20,000 bases of DNA, taken from positions 109,363-129,362 of IMG/VR virus record IMGVR_UViG_3300031963_000026; one strand, written 5' to 3'. Within the stretch, counting starts at the first letter, position 1. Every line of letters starts with the position of its first letter. Made by a program: the position numbers and the translations under genes. The notes under the pieces were generated by a model. It did no database searches, was not told where the DNA came from, and saw only the letters and a list, made by a program, of their open reading frames with translations. Shown in pieces: positions 11,317-16,367 of this stretch. The DNA is from an uncultured virus (IMG/VR IMGVR_UViG_3300031963_000026) (taxonomy: Duplodnaviria; Heunggongvirae; Uroviricota; Caudoviricetes).

Positions 11317-11358
11317 ATTGATAAATACTTGATTGTTTATTATATTTACCTTTTAAGT

Positions 11359-13113
11359 ATGAATGAAATAAAAATCAATCAACCGCTTGAAATCAGAGCA
11401 CTTGATGTCCTTGATAGTTATTCAGGGGCAAACAATTATATTATTAAATTAAAAATCAAAAAAGATACCAATAAAAAGTTCTATCCAACAAGAAACCAAG
11501 CGGAATATATCTTGGCTTATAAAGATTCCGTTCCAAAAGTTGCAAGAAAATGGGTGGAACTTGATATGTATTTTGCCAATAAATTTGCTGATGAAAAATT
11601 ATTAACCGAAGTTCCAACCAAAATATGGGTTGAGAAGTTATTGGTTGAAAAAGATACGTCTTATCACATTTGGGGTAAGTATTTTGAACACGAGGAATTA
11701 TATGATTTTTGGATTCCTAAATCAGGAATTATTAAAGATACTTCTGTTAAGGTTGTTATTGACTATGAAAAGTATTCACATAGACCGCCTCTTTCACACC
11801 AAAAAGAAGGTATTGAGAAATTAGTTGGAAATAAAAAATACATTCTTGCCGATGATATGGGTTTGGGGAAGACAACACAAACAATTATTGCTGCGTTGGA
11901 GACAGGGGTTGAGAAGGTTTTAATTATTAGTCCTGCATCATTGAAGATCAACTGGCAACGTGAGATTGAAAATTACACGGATAGATCGGTTGTAATTATT
12001 GATGGGAAGAAATGGGAATCCGCCGATTTTGTTATCGTAAATTATGACATTTTGAAAAACTTTCATGATCCAAAAAATCGGGAAGAAAGTCAAATATTGA
12101 ATGAAGGATTTGGGTTGGTCATTATTGATGAAGCACATTATATTCAAAACACACAAGCACAAAGAACAAAACTTATTAACGATTTTGTTAAAAAAATTGA
12201 TAGATTATGGTTATTAACCGGAACACCAATGACATCAAGACCAATAAACTATTATAACTTATTAAGTTTGATTGATTCACCCGTTGCAATGAATTGGATG
12301 GCTTATGTTATGAGATATTGTGAAGGTTATCAATTCAAGGTAGGGAATAGAAAAGTTTGGAATGTTAATGGTGCGTCAAATCTTGAAGAATTAAGAGATA
12401 GAACATCTCGTCAAGTATTAAGAAGATTAAAAACCGACGTATTGGATCTTCCTGAAAAAATCATCACACCCGTTTATCTTAAATTGAAATCTTATGAATA
12501 TGAACGATTGATGGGTGAATATTATGATTGGTATGATAACTCTAAAGAATCTACCTCATTAACCGTACAATTCACTAAATTAATGAAGGTTAGACAGGTT
12601 ATATCGGAAGAAAAAGTAAAATCAACAATTGAATTATGTGAAAACATTATTGAACAAGGAAAGAAAGTAATTGTTTTTACCAATTTTACCAACTCGTTAA
12701 ACTCTATCTTATCTCACTTCGGAAAAAAAGCGGTTGGTCTTGATGGTAGTATGCCTCAAGGTATGAGACAAGATAACGTTGATAAATTCCAAAATGATGA
12801 AAATATTATGGTGTTTGTTGGGAACATTAAAGCAGCTGGGGTTGGTATCACATTAACATCTGCGGAAGTTGTTGTTATGAATGACCTGTCATTTGTACCG
12901 TCAGATCACTCACAAGCCGAGGATCGTGCTTATCGTTATGGTCAAAAAAATAACGTTTTGGTATATTATCCTATTTTTGATAACACGATTGAGGGTATTA
13001 TTTATAACATTCTACAAAAGAAGAAAAACATCTTTGAAACCGTTATGGGGGATAATTTAAGTAAGGGTGATATGGTGGAGGAAATCATGAATATGATTAA
13101 CACAAAAAGATAA
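11359..13113 (+). CDS. SNF2-family helicase/ATPase (SMARCAL1/HARP-like)
   Basis: LADDMGLGKT (Walker A), DEAH, LLTGTP, GVGITLT, QAEDRAYRYGQ motifs. ATG at 11359 preferred over TTG at 11329. Confidence 0.92.
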   Translation: MNEIKINQPLEIRALDVLDSYSGANNYIIKLKIKKDTNKKFYPTRNQAEYILAYKDSVPKVARKWVELDMYFANKFADEKLLTEVPTKIWVEKLLVEKDTSYHIWGKYFEHEELYDFWIPKSGIIKDTSVKVVIDYEKYSHRPPLSHQKEGIEKLVGNKKYILADDMGLGKTTQTIIAALETGVEKVLIISPASLKINWQREIENYTDRSVVIIDGKKWESADFVIVNYDILKNFHDPKNREESQILNEGFGLVIIDEAHYIQNTQAQRTKLINDFVKKIDRLWLLTGTPMTSRPINYYNLLSLIDSPVAMNWMAYVMRYCEGYQFKVGNRKVWNVNGASNLEELRDRTSRQVLRRLKTDVLDLPEKIITPVYLKLKSYEYERLMGEYYDWYDNSKESTSLTVQFTKLMKVRQVISEEKVKSTIELCENIIEQGKKVIVFTNFTNSLNSILSHFGKKAVGLDGSMPQGMRQDNVDKFQNDENIMVFVGNIKAAGVGITLTSAEVVVMNDLSFVPSDHSQAEDRAYRYGQKNNVLVYYPIFDNTIEGIIYNILQKKKNIFETVMGDNLSKGDMVEEIMNMINTKR

Positions 13114-13129
13114 TGATATATTTATCATT

Positions 13130-13453
13130 ATGAAAGTTAAAGTAACAGAAGATAAGTTATACCCTGTTTTCAAAAAATTTATGGAAACTCAGTTTAAGAA
13201 TTATGAATGGATCGAAGATAATTATGATGTTGTTTTGTTTATGAGTCCCGGAGGAGATTCTTATTTGGCGTTGAGTAAAGATAAAACTTTATTAATTTAT
13301 GCTAAAACCGCAAAAAAAATCCTTAATTACCTTCCTATGGAACGATCTATGTTCCTATCACTTATGACTAGATGGGTAGGAGAGACCTTAAATATTAAGG
13401 GTATAACCCTCTCGCAGTTTCAACAGTTGGTTTTGATTAGCCTTAATAGATAA
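13130..13453 (+). CDS. Paralog 1 of MKVKVTE family, unknown function
   Basis: 107 aa; shares MKVKVTE.KLYP.FKKFMETQFK.YEW, IL.Y.PME and WV..T with neighbours. Confidence 0.85.
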   Translation: MKVKVTEDKLYPVFKKFMETQFKNYEWIEDNYDVVLFMSPGGDSYLALSKDKTLLIYAKTAKKILNYLPMERSMFLSLMTRWVGETLNIKGITLSQFQQLVLISLNR

Positions 13454-13472
13454 TAATAATATATTTATCATT

Positions 13473-13814
13473 ATGAAAGTTAAAGTAACAGAAGAAAAGT
13501 TATATCCATTATTCAAAAAATTCATGGAAACTCAGTTTAAGAAATATGAATGGAGAAAAGGTAAATTTGATTCCATTTGGTTCATAGACCCTGAAGGATA
13601 TGGTCACATGGGATTGTTGAAAAATAAAGAGTTATTAATCTATCGTGAGATTAAAGATCAAATTCTTCGCTACATTCCTATGGAAAAATCTATGTTACAA
13701 ACACTTATGAGTAAGTGGGTAGAAGAAACCCTTCAAGTTGAAGGGTTAACCGTTCCCACTGTACCCCAATTTACAATACCGCGTTTTTATGATGGTGATA
13801 CCTTTCCATTATAA
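13473..13814 (+). CDS. Paralog 2 of MKVKVTE family
   Basis: 113 aa, ends GDTFPL. Confidence 0.85.
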   Translation: MKVKVTEEKLYPLFKKFMETQFKKYEWRKGKFDSIWFIDPEGYGHMGLLKNKELLIYREIKDQILRYIPMEKSMLQTLMSKWVEETLQVEGLTVPTVPQFTIPRFYDGDTFPL

Positions 13815-13828
13815 GAATATTTATCAAT

Positions 13829-14164
13829 ATGAAAGTTAAAGTAACAGAAGATAAGTTATACCCTGTTTTCAAAAAATTTATGGAAACTCAGTTTAAGAAT
13901 TATGAATGGAGAAAAGATCGGAATGATGACATTTGGTTTTCAGATCCTAAAGGGTATGGTCATTTGGGATTGGTACACATTAAGGATTTATTGATCTATC
14001 GTGATATTAGAAAAAAAATACTTCGTTATCTTCCTATGGAACAATCTATGTTAAACTCACTTATGAGTAAGTGGGTAGAAGAGACCCTTCAAGTTAAGGG
14101 GTTAGCCCCCACTTTGGCAAGACACGAATCCTATCCATTAGTTGATGGATCCTTTCCATTATAA
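13829..14164 (+). CDS. Paralog 3 of MKVKVTE family
   Basis: 111 aa, ends VDGSFPL. Confidence 0.85.
   Translation: MKVKVTEDKLYPVFKKFMETQFKNYEWRKDRNDDIWFSDPKGYGHLGLVHIKDLLIYRDIRKKILRYLPMEQSMLNSLMSKWVEETLQVKGLAPTLARHESYPLVDGSFPL
14075..14160 (-). CRISPR. Putative single-spacer CRISPR-like unit (degenerate), unit 3
   Basis: 36-nt repeat 14075-14110, 30-nt unique segment 14111-14140, partial repeat GTTGATGGATCCTTTCC from 14141. Confidence 0.4.
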
Positions 14165-14178
14165 GAATATTTATCATT

Positions 14179-14487
14179 ATGAAAGTTAAAGTAACAGAAG
14201 AAAAGTTATATCCAGTATTCAAAAAATTTATGGAAACTCAGTTTAAGAATTATGAATGGACAAAAGATGAATATGGGTGTATTGATTTTGTGGATCCTGA
14301 AGGATTTGGTCATTTGGAATTGGAAAACAATGAAGATTTATGGGTTTATGGTGATATTAAAGATCAAATTCTTCGCTACATTCCTATGGAAGAATATATG
14401 TTAGAATCACTTATGGGTAGATGGGTTGGAGATACCTTTCAAATTGAGGGTATAAACACCAGTATAGAATCGTTTCCAAATTTTTAA
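14179..14487 (+). CDS. Paralog 4 of MKVKVTE family
   Basis: 102 aa; TAA falls inside the variable segment and in-frame IVENAFPL* follows. Confidence 0.85.
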   Translation: MKVKVTEEKLYPVFKKFMETQFKNYEWTKDEYGCIDFVDPEGFGHLELENNEDLWVYGDIKDQILRYIPMEEYMLESLMGRWVGDTFQIEGINTSIESFPNF

Positions 14488-14510
14488 ATCGTTGAAAATG
14501 CCTTTCCATT
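14425..14510 (-). CRISPR. Putative single-spacer CRISPR-like unit with type VI-B-like repeat, unit 4
   Basis: Repeat 14425-14460 (minus: GGTGTTTATACCCTCAATTTGAAAGGTATCTCCAAC), 30-nt spacer 14461-14490, partial repeat GTTGAAAATGCCTTTCC from 14491. Confidence 0.5.
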
Positions 14511-14529
14511 GTAAGAATATTTATATGGT

Positions 14530-14820
14530 ATGAAAGTCAAGGTAACAGAAGAAAAGTTATATCCAGTTTTCAAAAAATTCATGGAAACTCAGTTTAAGAA
14601 ATATGAATGGAGAAAAGATGAACTTGGGACTATTTGGTTTATGGATCCTGAAGGATTTGGTGATCTGGAATTGGGAGATAAAAATTTATGGGTTCATCGT
14701 GATATTAAAAATAAAATTCTTCGTTATCTTCCTATGGAAGAATCTATGTTAGACTCGCTTATATCTAGATGGGTTGGAGATACTTTTCAAATTGAGGGTA
14801 TAAACATCCTCGAGATGTGA
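14530..14820 (+). CDS. Paralog 5 of MKVKVTE family
   Basis: 96 aa; TGA inside the variable segment, then in-frame LPW*EEVGDTFPL*. Confidence 0.85.
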   Translation: MKVKVTEEKLYPVFKKFMETQFKKYEWRKDELGTIWFMDPEGFGDLELGDKNLWVHRDIKNKILRYLPMEESMLDSLISRWVGDTFQIEGINILEM

Positions 14821-14858
14821 TTGCCATGGTAGGAGGAAGTTGGTGATACCTTTCCATT
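14773..14858 (-). CRISPR. Putative single-spacer CRISPR-like unit with type VI-B-like repeat, unit 5
   Basis: Repeat 14773-14808 (minus: GATGTTTATACCCTCAATTTGAAAAGTATCTCCAAC), 30-nt spacer 14809-14838, partial repeat GTTGGTGATACCTTTCC from 14839. Confidence 0.5.
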
Positions 14859-14877
14859 ATAAGAATATTTATATGGT

Positions 14878-15552
14878 ATGAAACTACTTGAGAGAAAAAT
14901 ACATTTACTAGAATCTTTATTGGATGGTAAGAATATTTTTGAAGCCAATTATAAAGCACAAAAATTAGATTATAACTTAAATTCATTATCAGATTTTATC
15001 GGTAAAGATACTATGGATGTTCATTATAATGGACATTATAAAACTTACCTTAAAAAATTAAATGAACTTCTACCGGATGAAAAAATGATCCCAATAGAAG
15101 ATTTAATTAAAAAAATATCAAGGTATAACAAGAAAATTAGGAATAATGCTGGTGGTGTATATAACCACCAACTATTTTGGAAAATGTTATCACCAAACAA
15201 AACAAAACCATCTAAAGAACTATTAGAAAAAATTAACAAAGATTTTGGTTCTTATGATGAGTTCAAACAAAAGTTTGAAAAAGTGGCATTAGACAGGTTT
15301 GGTTCAGGATGGGTTTGGTTAATTATGGGTAAAAGTGGTAGGTTACGTGTCGTATCTACACCCAATCAGGACAACCCCGAGATGAATATTATTAGAAATG
15401 GAGGAAAAATTTTATTGGGGCTTGACATTTGGGAACATGCGTATTATCTTAGCTACCGAAATGAGAGAGACCGATATATCAAAAACTTTTGGAAAGTGGT
15501 AAATTGGGATTTCGTAAGTTCAGAATATCAGAAACTTAAACCAACTAAATAA
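14878..15552 (+). CDS. sod: Fe/Mn superoxide dismutase
   Basis: TMDVHYNGHY, NNAGGVYNHQLFW, FGSGWVWL, TPNQDNP and LDIWEHAYY signature; metal ligands appear intact. Confidence 0.95.
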   Translation: MKLLERKIHLLESLLDGKNIFEANYKAQKLDYNLNSLSDFIGKDTMDVHYNGHYKTYLKKLNELLPDEKMIPIEDLIKKISRYNKKIRNNAGGVYNHQLFWKMLSPNKTKPSKELLEKINKDFGSYDEFKQKFEKVALDRFGSGWVWLIMGKSGRLRVVSTPNQDNPEMNIIRNGGKILLGLDIWEHAYYLSYRNERDRYIKNFWKVVNWDFVSSEYQKLKPTK

Positions 15553-16367
15553 TGAAAAACTCATTTGTTCTCAACGAAGAAAAAGTAACAAAATGTTCCT
15601 ATTCCGAAGTTAGTAAGTACAAAGATTTGTTTAACCGTAATCCTAAAGTAAAGTGGATTTATCGTGAAGCAATTGACAAAGCACTCGAAGTGGTGTTTAA
15701 AGATTTATGGCAAACTCACCCAAAAGGTTCCGAAACTGTTTCAGGAGTTTTTAATTTAGAAGGACCCGGTAGATCGGTTTTGAATAAGTTAAATACCAAT
15801 TATAGTGCATTCGCCATATTAGTTAGAGATATCAATAAGGTATTAAAATCAAGAGGTATCCAACTTTTGAATTTTAATGGAACACAAGACGACCAACTTT
15901 TTGAAGCAAGAAAAATGGCTAAGGTGATTGACACATTCAAAGAACGAATATTCAACACCGAATCATCCACATTTAATAGTATTATGGCAACACTTAATCG
16001 CACACATAAATTAGGTGAGAATAGAGAAGATAGTGTTGTTAATTTTTTGAAAAGGATCTATGGTGACGATAATGTTTCAAAGATTGGTGGGTTAAATAGT
16101 TCTGAAGATATGACATCGGGTGTTGATGTTTTAATTAAAACTGAGGGTAATACTAAAACCGCTCAAGTTAAACCTTTCTACAAAACATTAAATGATGGTG
16201 TGACTATTAGGTTCGCAGATACTGGTAACGTTAAAAAATACGAGACAGATTACCTGATTTTTGACGGTACTAAAGAAATCTACATTATGAATAACAATCA
16301 AACCGTTATTGTTGAAGGTGAATATTCTTTTCCGAGTGAGTCAGTAATTCATATATTATCAAAGTAA
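15552..16367 (+). CDS. Hypothetical protein with PD-(D/E)xK-like C-terminal motif
   Basis: G..RE...EDMTSGVDVLI...TAQVKP pattern resembles restriction-like nuclease active sites; coupled to sod (TAATG overlap). Confidence 0.45.
   Translation: MKNSFVLNEEKVTKCSYSEVSKYKDLFNRNPKVKWIYREAIDKALEVVFKDLWQTHPKGSETVSGVFNLEGPGRSVLNKLNTNYSAFAILVRDINKVLKSRGIQLLNFNGTQDDQLFEARKMAKVIDTFKERIFNTESSTFNSIMATLNRTHKLGENREDSVVNFLKRIYGDDNVSKIGGLNSSEDMTSGVDVLIKTEGNTKTAQVKPFYKTLNDGVTIRFADTGNVKKYETDYLIFDGTKEIYIMNNNQTVIVEGEYSFPSESVIHILSK

Follow-up and report, generated by a model that had tools for sequence, protein, structure and literature searches.

The question raised by this locus is why five tandem copies of a small phage gene, alike along most of their length, should be interrupted near their 3′ ends by a short block in which not a single alignment column is conserved. 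The genes lie in a 20,000-nt stretch of DNA (the window; G000:C1:109363–129362) that forms part of the 129,362-bp IMG/VR virus record IMGVR_UViG_3300031963_000026 (G000), which comes from a freshwater jumbo phage of 33% G+C and has a CheckV completeness of 43%. A sister contig, G001, is 165.5 kb long and is estimated at 55% of the genome; the unsequenced share of the phage genome is 45–57%. That the interrupted copies are repeat-spacer units of CRISPR origin is, in our judgment, very probable. The more specific answer, to which we give about an even chance, is that they are virus-borne single-spacer mini-CRISPR arrays, each ending in a repeat that overprints the final 12 codons of a conserved small gene of the phage.

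The five paralogs (A1–A5; 96–113 codons) occupy positions 13130–14877 on the plus strand, between an open reading frame (ORF) for a SNF2-type helicase (11329–13113) and the next large ORFs. Mean column identity in their DNA alignment is 82%, and the alignment is broken by the single unconserved block. Each unit is built in the same order: an invariant Trp codon, a 36-nt conserved block, an unrelated middle segment (36 nt in A2, 30 nt in A3–A5), a copy of the block's initial 16 nt, and a conserved spacer (CATTATAAGAATATTTAT...) that leads to the following start codon. The second repeat copy, and hence a spacer unit, is missing from A1. An earlier note, made from the letters of the window, had placed the blocks at 13376–13411, 13719–13754, 14075–14110, 14425–14460, and 14773–14808, each straight after the Trp codon, and the middles at 14111–14140, 14461–14490, and 14809–14838 (30 nt each), with 36 nt in unit 2 and a second copy of the block's first ~16 nt everywhere except in unit 1. 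All these coordinates proved exact. The features are as follows; scores out of 36 are matches to the direct repeat of a metagenomic array, L040, described below.

13130..13453, plus strand: paralog A1, 107 aa (ORF list and translation), with a solitary diverged repeat at 13376–13411 in its last codons (23/36, in the background tail)
13473..13814, plus strand: paralog A2, 113 aa, open across its variable segment (36 nt) and the partial repeat, with its end at ...DGDTFPL-stop
13719..13806, minus strand: unit A2, partial repeat 13806–13791 (CATC end), variable segment 13790–13755 (36 nt), full diverged repeat 13754–13719
13829..14164, plus strand: paralog A3, 111 aa, open through the variable segment to its end at ...VDGSFPL-stop
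14075..14156, minus strand: unit A3, partial repeat 14156–14141, variable segment 14140–14111 (30 nt), diverged full repeat 14110–14075 (22/36)
14179..14487, plus strand: paralog A4, 102 aa, with a TAA stop within the variable segment
14425..14506, minus strand: unit A4, partial repeat 14506–14491, variable segment 14490–14461 (30 nt), full repeat 14460–14425 (31/36)
14530..14820, plus strand: paralog A5, 96 aa, with a TGA stop within the variable segment
14773..14854, minus strand: unit A5, partial repeat 14854–14839 (GAAAGGTATCACCAAC on the minus strand), variable segment 14838–14809 (30 nt), full repeat 14808–14773 (30/36)
14855..14877, no strand assigned: conserved inter-unit spacer (CATTATAAGAATATTTAT...), which recurs after A2, A3, and A4

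A search of the whole record revealed three further units (B1–B3) on the other strand, at ~11.85–12.9 kb of G000:C1, and a ninth unit (called C1) was found in G001. There are, in total, nine copies at three loci; eight have the second repeat copy, and each of the eight has one middle segment (36, 30, 30, 30, 31, 30, 30, and 30 nt long). The distance from repeat start to repeat start is 66 nt in six of these eight, 67 nt in B1, and 72 nt in A2. Mean pairwise ungapped identity among the nine units was 0.84 in the 60 nt upstream of the block, 0.77 in the block, 0.82 in the tail, and 0.28 in the middle, and the best-shift match between middles (11.5) was at the level of 200 shuffles (11.2 ± 0.26). 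In the case of B3 and C1, the 36-nt blocks are identical, while the middles are only 20% alike. On this comparison, the middles have been replaced wholesale between otherwise near-identical units, whose flanks are 77–84% alike, and they behave like spacers, as the earlier note had supposed. Within the phage itself the units are all but identical: in six other IMG/VR contigs, G001 included, the 1748-nt array differs by one single-nucleotide polymorphism only, at window position 14025 (G in the window, C elsewhere).

The middles contain stops in A4, A5, B2, and C1 and a frameshift in B1, and are open in A2, A3, and B3. In five of the eight units, the partial repeat therefore lies beyond a stop or out of frame, and its conservation is still 0.82; the downstream copy is thus conserved even where it cannot be translated. 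An alternative genetic code was rejected as their cause, since all three stop codons (TAA, TAG, and TGA) are found in frame. Variation of the type produced by diversity-generating retroelements was rejected because the segments are unrelated, rather than differing only at adenines. Two middles hold small symmetries that are probably due to chance: the palindromes CTCGAG and CCATGG in A5 (14809–14838) and a 7-bp inverted repeat (GGTGATG...CATCACC) in B2.

The identity of the conserved block was established by comparison with arrays in freshwater metagenomes. Rfam detected no CRISPR direct-repeat family in positions 12500–15500 at E values up to 10 (three chance-level matches only). The GenBank phage collection gave no match in a megablast search and, in a distant blastn search, only short AT-rich matches (E ≥ 0.04), none of them on a variable segment. 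Scanning of IMG/VR with a 16-nt core retrieved only this phage and chance matches, and the exact core with a CAAC end had no match among GTDB representatives. Some Logan contigs from four freshwater runs have the block followed by other 30–36-nt inserts and then by the block again, a further sign of spacer-like turnover, and some have the block with a canonical ...ACAAC end; a scan of JGI metagenome contigs for the ...ACAAC-end form returned three contigs with true arrays. The array of L040 has the repeat GTTGTAAATACCCTCAATTTGAAAGGTATATACAAC and 30-nt spacers; that of L038 (L039 is identical over the array region printed) has eleven repeats at 58–66-nt spacing. The matching arrays have 36-nt repeats with a 64–66-nt period and unrelated 28–31-nt spacers.

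As a control, the L040 direct repeat was scored against all 258,654 36-mers on both strands of the 129-kb record, where the background was 10.2 ± 2.7. The five top-scoring 36-mers of the record were the repeats of A4 (31/36), A5 (30), B3 (29), B2 (26), and B1 (25), all antisense to the genes, and only six positions reached 24. The C1 repeat in G001 scored 29/36. By these scores, the 36-nt block and the direct repeat of real CRISPR arrays are homologs, and the earlier note was right to take the block for a CRISPR repeat. The 36 + 30 period is also the same as in real arrays of the repeat family to which L038, L040, and Flavobacterium jejuense belong.

Judged by the genes beside them, the arrays with the closest repeats adjoin miniature Cas12f-like (TnpB-derived, type V) effectors, including effectors of jumbo phages of the same clade. 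A 476-aa ORF adjoining the L038 array (P0001) matched, over its full length, the PADLOC models Cas12u3 (3e-82) and Cas12f (1e-81), as well as the NCBIfam RNA-guided endonuclease TnpB family (guided_TnpB; 158 bits at a cut-off of 100) and the Pfam families OrfB_IS605 and Cas12f1-like_TNB. L040 encodes a 370-aa relative of P0001 in the same orientation relative to its array. Close relatives of P0001 (75–85% identical) are found in IMG/VR contigs G002 (310.7 kb, 93% complete) and G003 (72.9 kb), each with an array of the same repeat family and 29–31-nt spacers upstream of the effector gene. The matches to Cas12f-like-linked repeats were 31/36 for L040, 30 for L038 and for a solitary repeat in G002, 29 for Parapedobacter koreensis, and 26 for G003. 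Eleven more distant relatives of the effector lie in viral contigs, and most of their loci that were inspected have repeats of 33–36 nt in the GTTGTA...CAAC/CAGC style with a 63–67-nt period. The effector family comprises 372 clusters at E ≤ 1e-10, several on contigs of 250–340 kb. The 369–372-aa members (L040:60–1172, minus strand; L115:2555–3670; L107:2409–3524; L093:4152–5258) align to the PADLOC models only up to position 338–341 of 398–399 and are without the TNB/zinc-finger end of the 476-aa phage versions; they may be nuclease-defective RNA-guided binders.

G002 is related to the phage studied here: identity is 51% for a 1067-aa ORF, along its full length, and 61% for the helicase, and gene order is collinear between 165–250 kb of G002 and 45–129 kb of G000. 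The small-gene family was not found in G002 or G003, and the effector locus of G002 is an accessory region without a counterpart in G000. A 292-kb contig of a near-identical phage exists, as revealed by a profile search of metagenome proteins, and encodes P0036 and P0043, whose middle segment is that of unit B3; none of the at least 120 effector clusters listed, of 372, has this 292,212-bp contig as its longest, which is uninformative. We consider it slightly better than an even chance that the cognate effector of the units is a Cas12f-like one, and not Cas13b.

The earlier note had read the units on the minus strand, and the repeat of A4 agrees with this: it matches the L040 repeat at 31/36 positions antisense to the gene and at 24/36 in the sense direction. 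When the repeat is read in the sense of the effector gene, a ...TTTGAAAGGTATATACAAC-type end is obtained in all effector-linked arrays inspected (L038, L040, L041, L042, L047, L048, L055, L079, L107, L115, and L117). According to RNA sequencing data in the available part of Smargon et al. (10.1101/092577), the sense with the TTTGAAAGGTATATACAAC end is the transcribed one in type VI-B systems. At L041, L042, and L038, a shared pseudo-repeat that keeps only the 3′ handle stands right after the effector stop codon, starting within ~10 nt of it (...CTCACTCACTAA.TACTTTT...GGT.TATACAA.; L041:7430–7471, L042:7430–7533, and L038:4100–4273); it is a candidate regulatory CRISPR RNA (crRNA)-like RNA of these effector systems. 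At L042, the pseudo-repeat is followed by exactly 30 nt and then by a full repeat, with a similar arrangement at L038. In these native loci the main array ends, beside the effector start, in a repeat that is cut on its 3′ side, and the repeats of the decayed L038 array have a constant 3′ part of 21 nt and a drifting 5′ part. Type V crRNAs begin with the 3′ handle of the repeat, which is followed by the guide; the pseudo-repeat, the 3′-cut last repeat, and the constant 3′ 21 nt of L038 favor this order for the loci in question. Read antisense, the phage units consist of a handle-only copy (16 nt; 23 nt in C1), 30 nt, and a full repeat, i.e., they have the layout of the native effector loci. The handle half of the phage repeat is also the better kept one (0.80 versus 0.63 match to the real repeat), and it is exactly this half that the partial copies keep.

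The protein that carries the repeat belongs to a family of its own. A profile built from the five proteins retrieved 64 clusters (at 90% identity) in metagenomes, and 62 of them carry the repeat-coded peptide. Many of the ORFs read on through an array: two full repeats are present in P0004, P0056, and P0063, with ~10 residues after each, and three in P0055 and P0058, while in several relatives the next repeat is read out of frame as PFKLRV. Among the 64 clusters there are 27 distinct read-through middle peptides, 25 of which are exactly 10 aa long, and 15 distinct closed tails. Identity between the two subfamilies is 39% in the protein body and 70% in the 12 residues that the repeat encodes, so to judge from this comparison the repeat is constrained beyond the protein. 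A remote pair of homologs in another viral contig (L143; 30% identical) ends in ...EWVEQNIELENT... and has the same C-terminal helix pattern with a repeat similarity of only 11/36. Because this homolog has the helix pattern without the repeat, the protein is older than the overprint, and the repeat was fitted onto a C-terminal helix that already existed. A search of IMG/VR for the distant subfamily returned only C1 itself and remoter homologs without repeats.

An AlphaFold2 model of A4 residues 1–94 (predicted local distance difference test score 93, predicted template modeling score 0.83) shows an α/β protein with a helix, four strands, and two helices. Pfam and PHROGs gave nothing below E 0.01 for the five proteins. 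A Foldseek search of the PDB with the A4 model gave nothing at E ≤ 0.001, and the best Z in a wide VIA-align search (4.4) was uninformative. Structural matches in BFVD were to uncharacterised proteins of uncultured phages only, among them A0A6J5L5U3, A0A6J5L9L5, A0A6J5L9Q5, A0A6J5L9N2, and A0A6J5L9M7 (template modeling scores 0.6–0.8, 9–23% identity). At least ten such "uncultured Caudovirales phage" proteins have neighboring accession numbers, which suggests another multi-paralog set of the same predicted fold. The proposal in the earlier note that the guides might serve the small proteins themselves found no support in this 94-aa α/β fold without a known relative.

If the units are mini-arrays, each of them would be transcribed antisense from the conserved inter-unit spacer. 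The crRNA would have the type V order, with the 3′ 16–23 nt of the repeat first and a guide of 30 nt after them, and the full repeat embedded in the gene would serve as its 3′ boundary. A Cas12f-like effector acting in trans would load the guides, whether it comes from the unsequenced part of the phage genome, a co-infecting relative, or the host, and the guides would be used against competing elements or host genes. The sequence TATAATGG stands directly 5′ of the partial repeat on the minus strand in six of the eight units, and the inter-unit spacer may be a putative promoter for either strand; a σ70 consensus scan revealed no enrichment (10 sites versus 11.8 ± 3.9 in shuffles). We rate at somewhat less than an even chance that the units function as true guides and are neither decoys nor fossils. 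Working guides or regulators are nevertheless favored over fossils because of the wholesale spacer replacement, the conserved untranslated handle, and the constraint on the repeat above that on the protein.

Several observations weigh against this reading. The repeats of A1–A3 (21–23/36) are in the background tail, and the best real repeat found anywhere matches at 31/36 positions, with none identical, whereas the repeats of published viral mini-arrays (PMC11656645) are identical to those of the host. Folding is also unfavorable. Antisense, the A4 repeat is predicted to reach −4.9 kcal/mol (z −0.26) and the A5 repeat 0 kcal/mol, i.e., to be unfolded, whereas real direct repeats have a 6-bp terminal closure and −10 to −14 kcal/mol (z −3.7 to −4.9). 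The terminal stem of the real family repeats is lost in the embedded ones, and in A4 and A5 it is the sense strand that gives the better fold, via G-U pairs. The A2 repeat matches at 21/36 but is predicted to form a strong apical hairpin whichever strand is read (z −3.4 and −4.0). Internal full repeats, as seen in the relatives, fit spacer insertion at the gene-side repeat, which would put the leader on the sense side. Read-through accounts for 27 of 42 distinct tails, against a rough expectation of ~46–52% for 10 random codons of this composition, an excess that leaves room for some protein-level selection.

Neither effector nor target was found. A tblastn search with P0001 detected no effector in G000, estimated to be 43% complete (best E 3.1), or in the 165-kb G001, and a search with the F. 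jejuense Cas13b detected no Cas13b in G000 (best E 0.45). The middles had no target in the phage's own 129 kb, no match beyond 15–16 nt in the GenBank phage collection, G002, or G003, and no target in 79 other loci (748 kb) or 401 Flavobacterium genomes. Exact 20–21-mers of three of the eight segments occurred in IMG/VR only in the phage itself. The searches of the phage genome, G002, G003, the other loci, and the Flavobacterium genomes gave 11 weak AT-rich matches, of which the sole one over a variable segment was read as chance because it extends into the tail and lies in an ordinary ORF. The best partial match, 15 nt between the handle-proximal end of the A4 segment and G002:244467–244482 (E 0.011 before correction for eight queries), was treated as chance because it lies inside an ordinary ORF and its E value is uncorrected. 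In the reverse direction, 22 and 139 spacers of real arrays matched nothing longer than 15 nt in this phage.

The earlier note had likened the repeat to those of type VI-B and proposed, as one of two possibilities, that the units hijack or jam Cas13b of the host; loaded by it, for example in a Flavobacterium, they would redirect or occupy it. A scan of GTDB representatives with the 3′ 19 nt of the repeat returned 43 loci, mostly in Bacteroidota. In F. jejuense (L079), a 1157-aa Cas13b (PADLOC 2e-247) is followed by an array with the repeat GTTGTGAAAGCCTTTATTTTGAAAGGTATATACAAC and 30-nt spacers, and Cas13b also lies beside the same repeat family in Flavobacterium sp. J27 (8e-193) and in a Bacteroides metagenome-assembled genome (9e-70). 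In Parapedobacter species and Pedobacter cryoconitis, in contrast, the arrays follow 369–372-aa Cas12f/Cas12u3-like genes (1e-50 to 1e-54), and a Flavobacterium Cas13b query had no match in four Parapedobacter genomes or in the Pedobacter genome with such arrays. A single repeat family (36 nt, 3′ half TTTGAAAGGT[ACG]TATACAAC, 30-nt spacers) thus spans Cas13b loci and loci of 369–476-aa Cas12f/Cas12u3-like proteins (L079, L101, and L117 versus L107/L115/L106, L093, and L038–L042), and is therefore used by two unrelated class 2 effectors. In Parapedobacter genomes (L097, from Parapedobacter luteus, L107, and L089), several short or mini-arrays of the same repeat are spread over a few kb, and many of their 5′ halves are degenerate (GGTG... 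starts, as in the phage).

The published hallmarks of VI-B are a 36-nt repeat with GUUG/CAAC pairing and a U-rich loop, spacers of 30 nt, and a crRNA of 66 nt in which the spacer is 5′ (Smargon et al., 10.1101/092577, available part). The lengths agree with the phage units (36-nt repeat, 30-nt spacer, 66-nt unit), which is unspecific, as the Cas12f-like-linked arrays have the same lengths. The end pairing of the GTTG...CAAC hairpin that the earlier note had cited for type VI-B is not kept: a CAAC end is present in six of the nine antisense repeats, the starts are GGTG, GATG, GACG, GGGA, GAGG, AACG, or GGGG, the loop is AAUUUG, and no closed terminal stem is predicted. Of the CTC(A)nTTTG(A/G)AGGGTA core that the note ascribed to such repeats, the comparison bears out a core, TTTGAAAGGTA, that the phage repeat shares with 30 Cas13-candidate repeats in the supplement of PMC10120316.

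The idea that host Cas13b loads the units is nevertheless an unlikely one. The layout of the antisense unit, exactly a spacer plus a full repeat, speaks for it, as do the occurrence of the repeat family beside Cas13b in three Bacteroidota and the fit of a 33% G+C freshwater phage to a Flavobacterium host (the host assignment itself being tentative). The A4 repeat, however, matches the Cas13b-linked repeats less well (F. jejuense 26/36, Bacteroides 25/36) than the Cas12f-like-linked ones (26–31/36), and the closest repeats (31, 30, and 29/36) all adjoin Cas12f/Cas12u3-like genes, which relatives of this very phage carry as well. In A4 and A5 the antisense strand forms a weak hairpin or none. 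The full repeats of A1–A3 are diverged and the partial ones well kept, the wrong way round if it is the full repeat that works. No Cas13b was detected in G000 or, with the F. jejuense query, in G002, and no protospacer was present in any set searched. The membership of the repeat in a family that does serve Cas13b stands, and we regard the VI-B idea as a near miss rather than a wrong turn.

The units could instead be RNA anti-CRISPR decoys of the Racr or Cracr kind, repeat mimics that soak up or re-program an effector, be it the host's or a rival phage's; the middle would then be irrelevant, or a short seed match to a cas promoter would suffice. Both solitary repeat units of viruses and crRNA-like regulatory RNAs are established (PMC10651486; 10.1101/2024.10.29.618823), and the imperfect copies (25–31/36) without a terminal stem are what one would expect of non-productive mimics. 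No full-length target turned up in anything searched. The effector is carried by related phages that would compete for the same hosts, and in two runs holding this phage there is array-bearing sequence identical to L038 (the X13/X16 insert is the reverse complement of the L038 spacer 2138–2165). For a pure decoy, on the other hand, neither the 30-nt length of the middles nor their wholesale replacement is needed, and the best partial match of a middle to G002, 15 nt long, falls inside an ordinary ORF. The Racr and Cracr sources, as far as available, contain no type V-F examples, and the Racr survey none of type VI. We regard decoys as rather improbable.

A broader reading builds on the mini-arrays and takes the units together as a distributed array of at least nine guides, spread by gene duplication and recombination and not by Cas1-Cas2. 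As the complement of the repeat lies in the last 12 codons, each paralog would drag along its own promoter-proximal single-guide cassette, and as the repeat family serves both Cas12f-like proteins and Cas13b in Bacteroidota, the same guides could arm or disarm effectors of both classes, those of rivals as well as those of the host. This proposal is a tentative one, and we think it improbable in this full form.

Still less likely, in our estimate, is that the units are fossils, i.e., that an ancestral gene captured an array end once, tandem duplication copied it, and the copies are now inert. The second copy is lost in A1, the A1–A3 repeats are at background, and the terminal stem is gone; no effector, target, or RNA was found, and the units are identical bar one position in 1748 nt across six other contigs. 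Duplication cannot, however, produce unrelated middles between identical repeats (B3 versus C1), nor at least 27 distinct middles in the family, nor the multi-repeat versions seen in relatives. It is likewise at odds with a partial repeat as conserved as the coding sequence (0.82) though untranslated in five of eight units, and with the conservation of repeat-coded residues (0.70) above that of the protein body (0.39).

Ordinary protein evolution, with hypervariable C-terminal tails between two copies of a VGDTF motif and no relation to CRISPR, can draw on a coding block that lies within a confidently predicted helix, on the mild excess of read-through tails, and on the distant homolog with its similar C-terminal helix and no repeat, but as a sole explanation it is refuted by the homology of the repeat to real effector-linked arrays (up to 31/36 nt, with the five best sites of the record all on these genes), five of the eight tails are closed by stops or a frameshift with the downstream copy still conserved, the repeat is read in a shifted frame as PFKLRV in several relatives, and we leave it next to no probability.

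The paralogs and the two ORFs that follow them (14878–15552 and 15552–16367) form a variable island, which is flanked by the conserved helicase on one side and by a 370-aa ORF and DNA polymerase on the other. In G002, the same island (G002:C1:244200–245470, L056) contains one 397-aa ORF on the other strand. The first ORF after the paralogs (14878–15552) has motifs that, by eye, resemble those of Fe/Mn superoxide dismutases. The runs that hold the phage come from 17 studies, with labels that include freshwater, lake-water, and "fungus" metagenomes; none of the runs holding the stretch is recorded as RNA, and two rows marked "RNA?" are guesses and probably DNA.

Viral mini-arrays with one or two spacers and no cas genes are described in archaeal viruses and phages in the context of inter-virus competition, and most of their spacers match related viruses (PMC11656645, available part). 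The units described here resemble them in having one spacer per array, a viral location, no adjacent cas gene, and a repeat whose CRISPR family also occurs in related viruses and in the same habitat. They differ in that the best repeat match is 31/36 and no target was found, the terminal repeat is overprinted on a coding 3′ end, gene and unit have multiplied together (nine copies at three loci), and the upstream repeat is cut to its 3′ 16–23 nt. The Racr survey lists 2,103 viral solitary repeat units of all types except VI (PMC10651486), and the viral Cracr RNAs are of types V-A and I-B/C/E/F only (10.1101/2024.10.29.618823), in the parts of these sources available. Common to them and to our units are imperfect phage-encoded repeats without cas genes, sometimes in small arrays, near a putative promoter; those parts describe neither V-F-like examples nor repeats inside coding sequence.

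Effectors of the Cas12f clade with arrays are known from huge phages of soil (PMC11748809, available part). With these V-F (former V-U3) systems the units have in common the repeat family, the 36 + 30 period, and the layout of L038, L041, and L042, in which a handle-only copy, a spacer, and a full repeat follow one another; they are different in that no effector was detected in the available 129–165 kb and in being dispersed and fused to genes rather than gathered in one array. VI-B arrays (10.1101/092577, available part) have the same 36-nt repeat, 30-nt spacer, and 66-nt unit and a common 3′ half (TTTGAAAGGTATATACAAC, F. jejuense), whereas here the GUUG/CAAC pairing is not kept, no cas13b was detected in G000, and the closest repeats are Cas12f-linked.

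Three features of the units are absent from the literature on mini-arrays and RNA anti-CRISPRs that was examined, which was not exhaustive. The first is dual coding, in which a CRISPR repeat is at the same time conserved coding sequence, its 12 codons being 70% identical where the protein bodies are 39% identical. The second is one guide per paralog, with the cassette multiplied together with the gene to at least nine copies at three loci. The third is a repeat family common to arrays of Cas13b and of 370–476-aa Cas12f-like effectors. Should the units be decoys, the range of RNA anti-CRISPRs would widen to type V-F and possibly to VI-B. If they are active, they would offer a tractable case of RNA-guided conflict between phages, or between phage and host, in freshwater Bacteroidota, and a natural example of minimal crRNA cassettes, each with its own promoter, that serve a type V effector of very small size.

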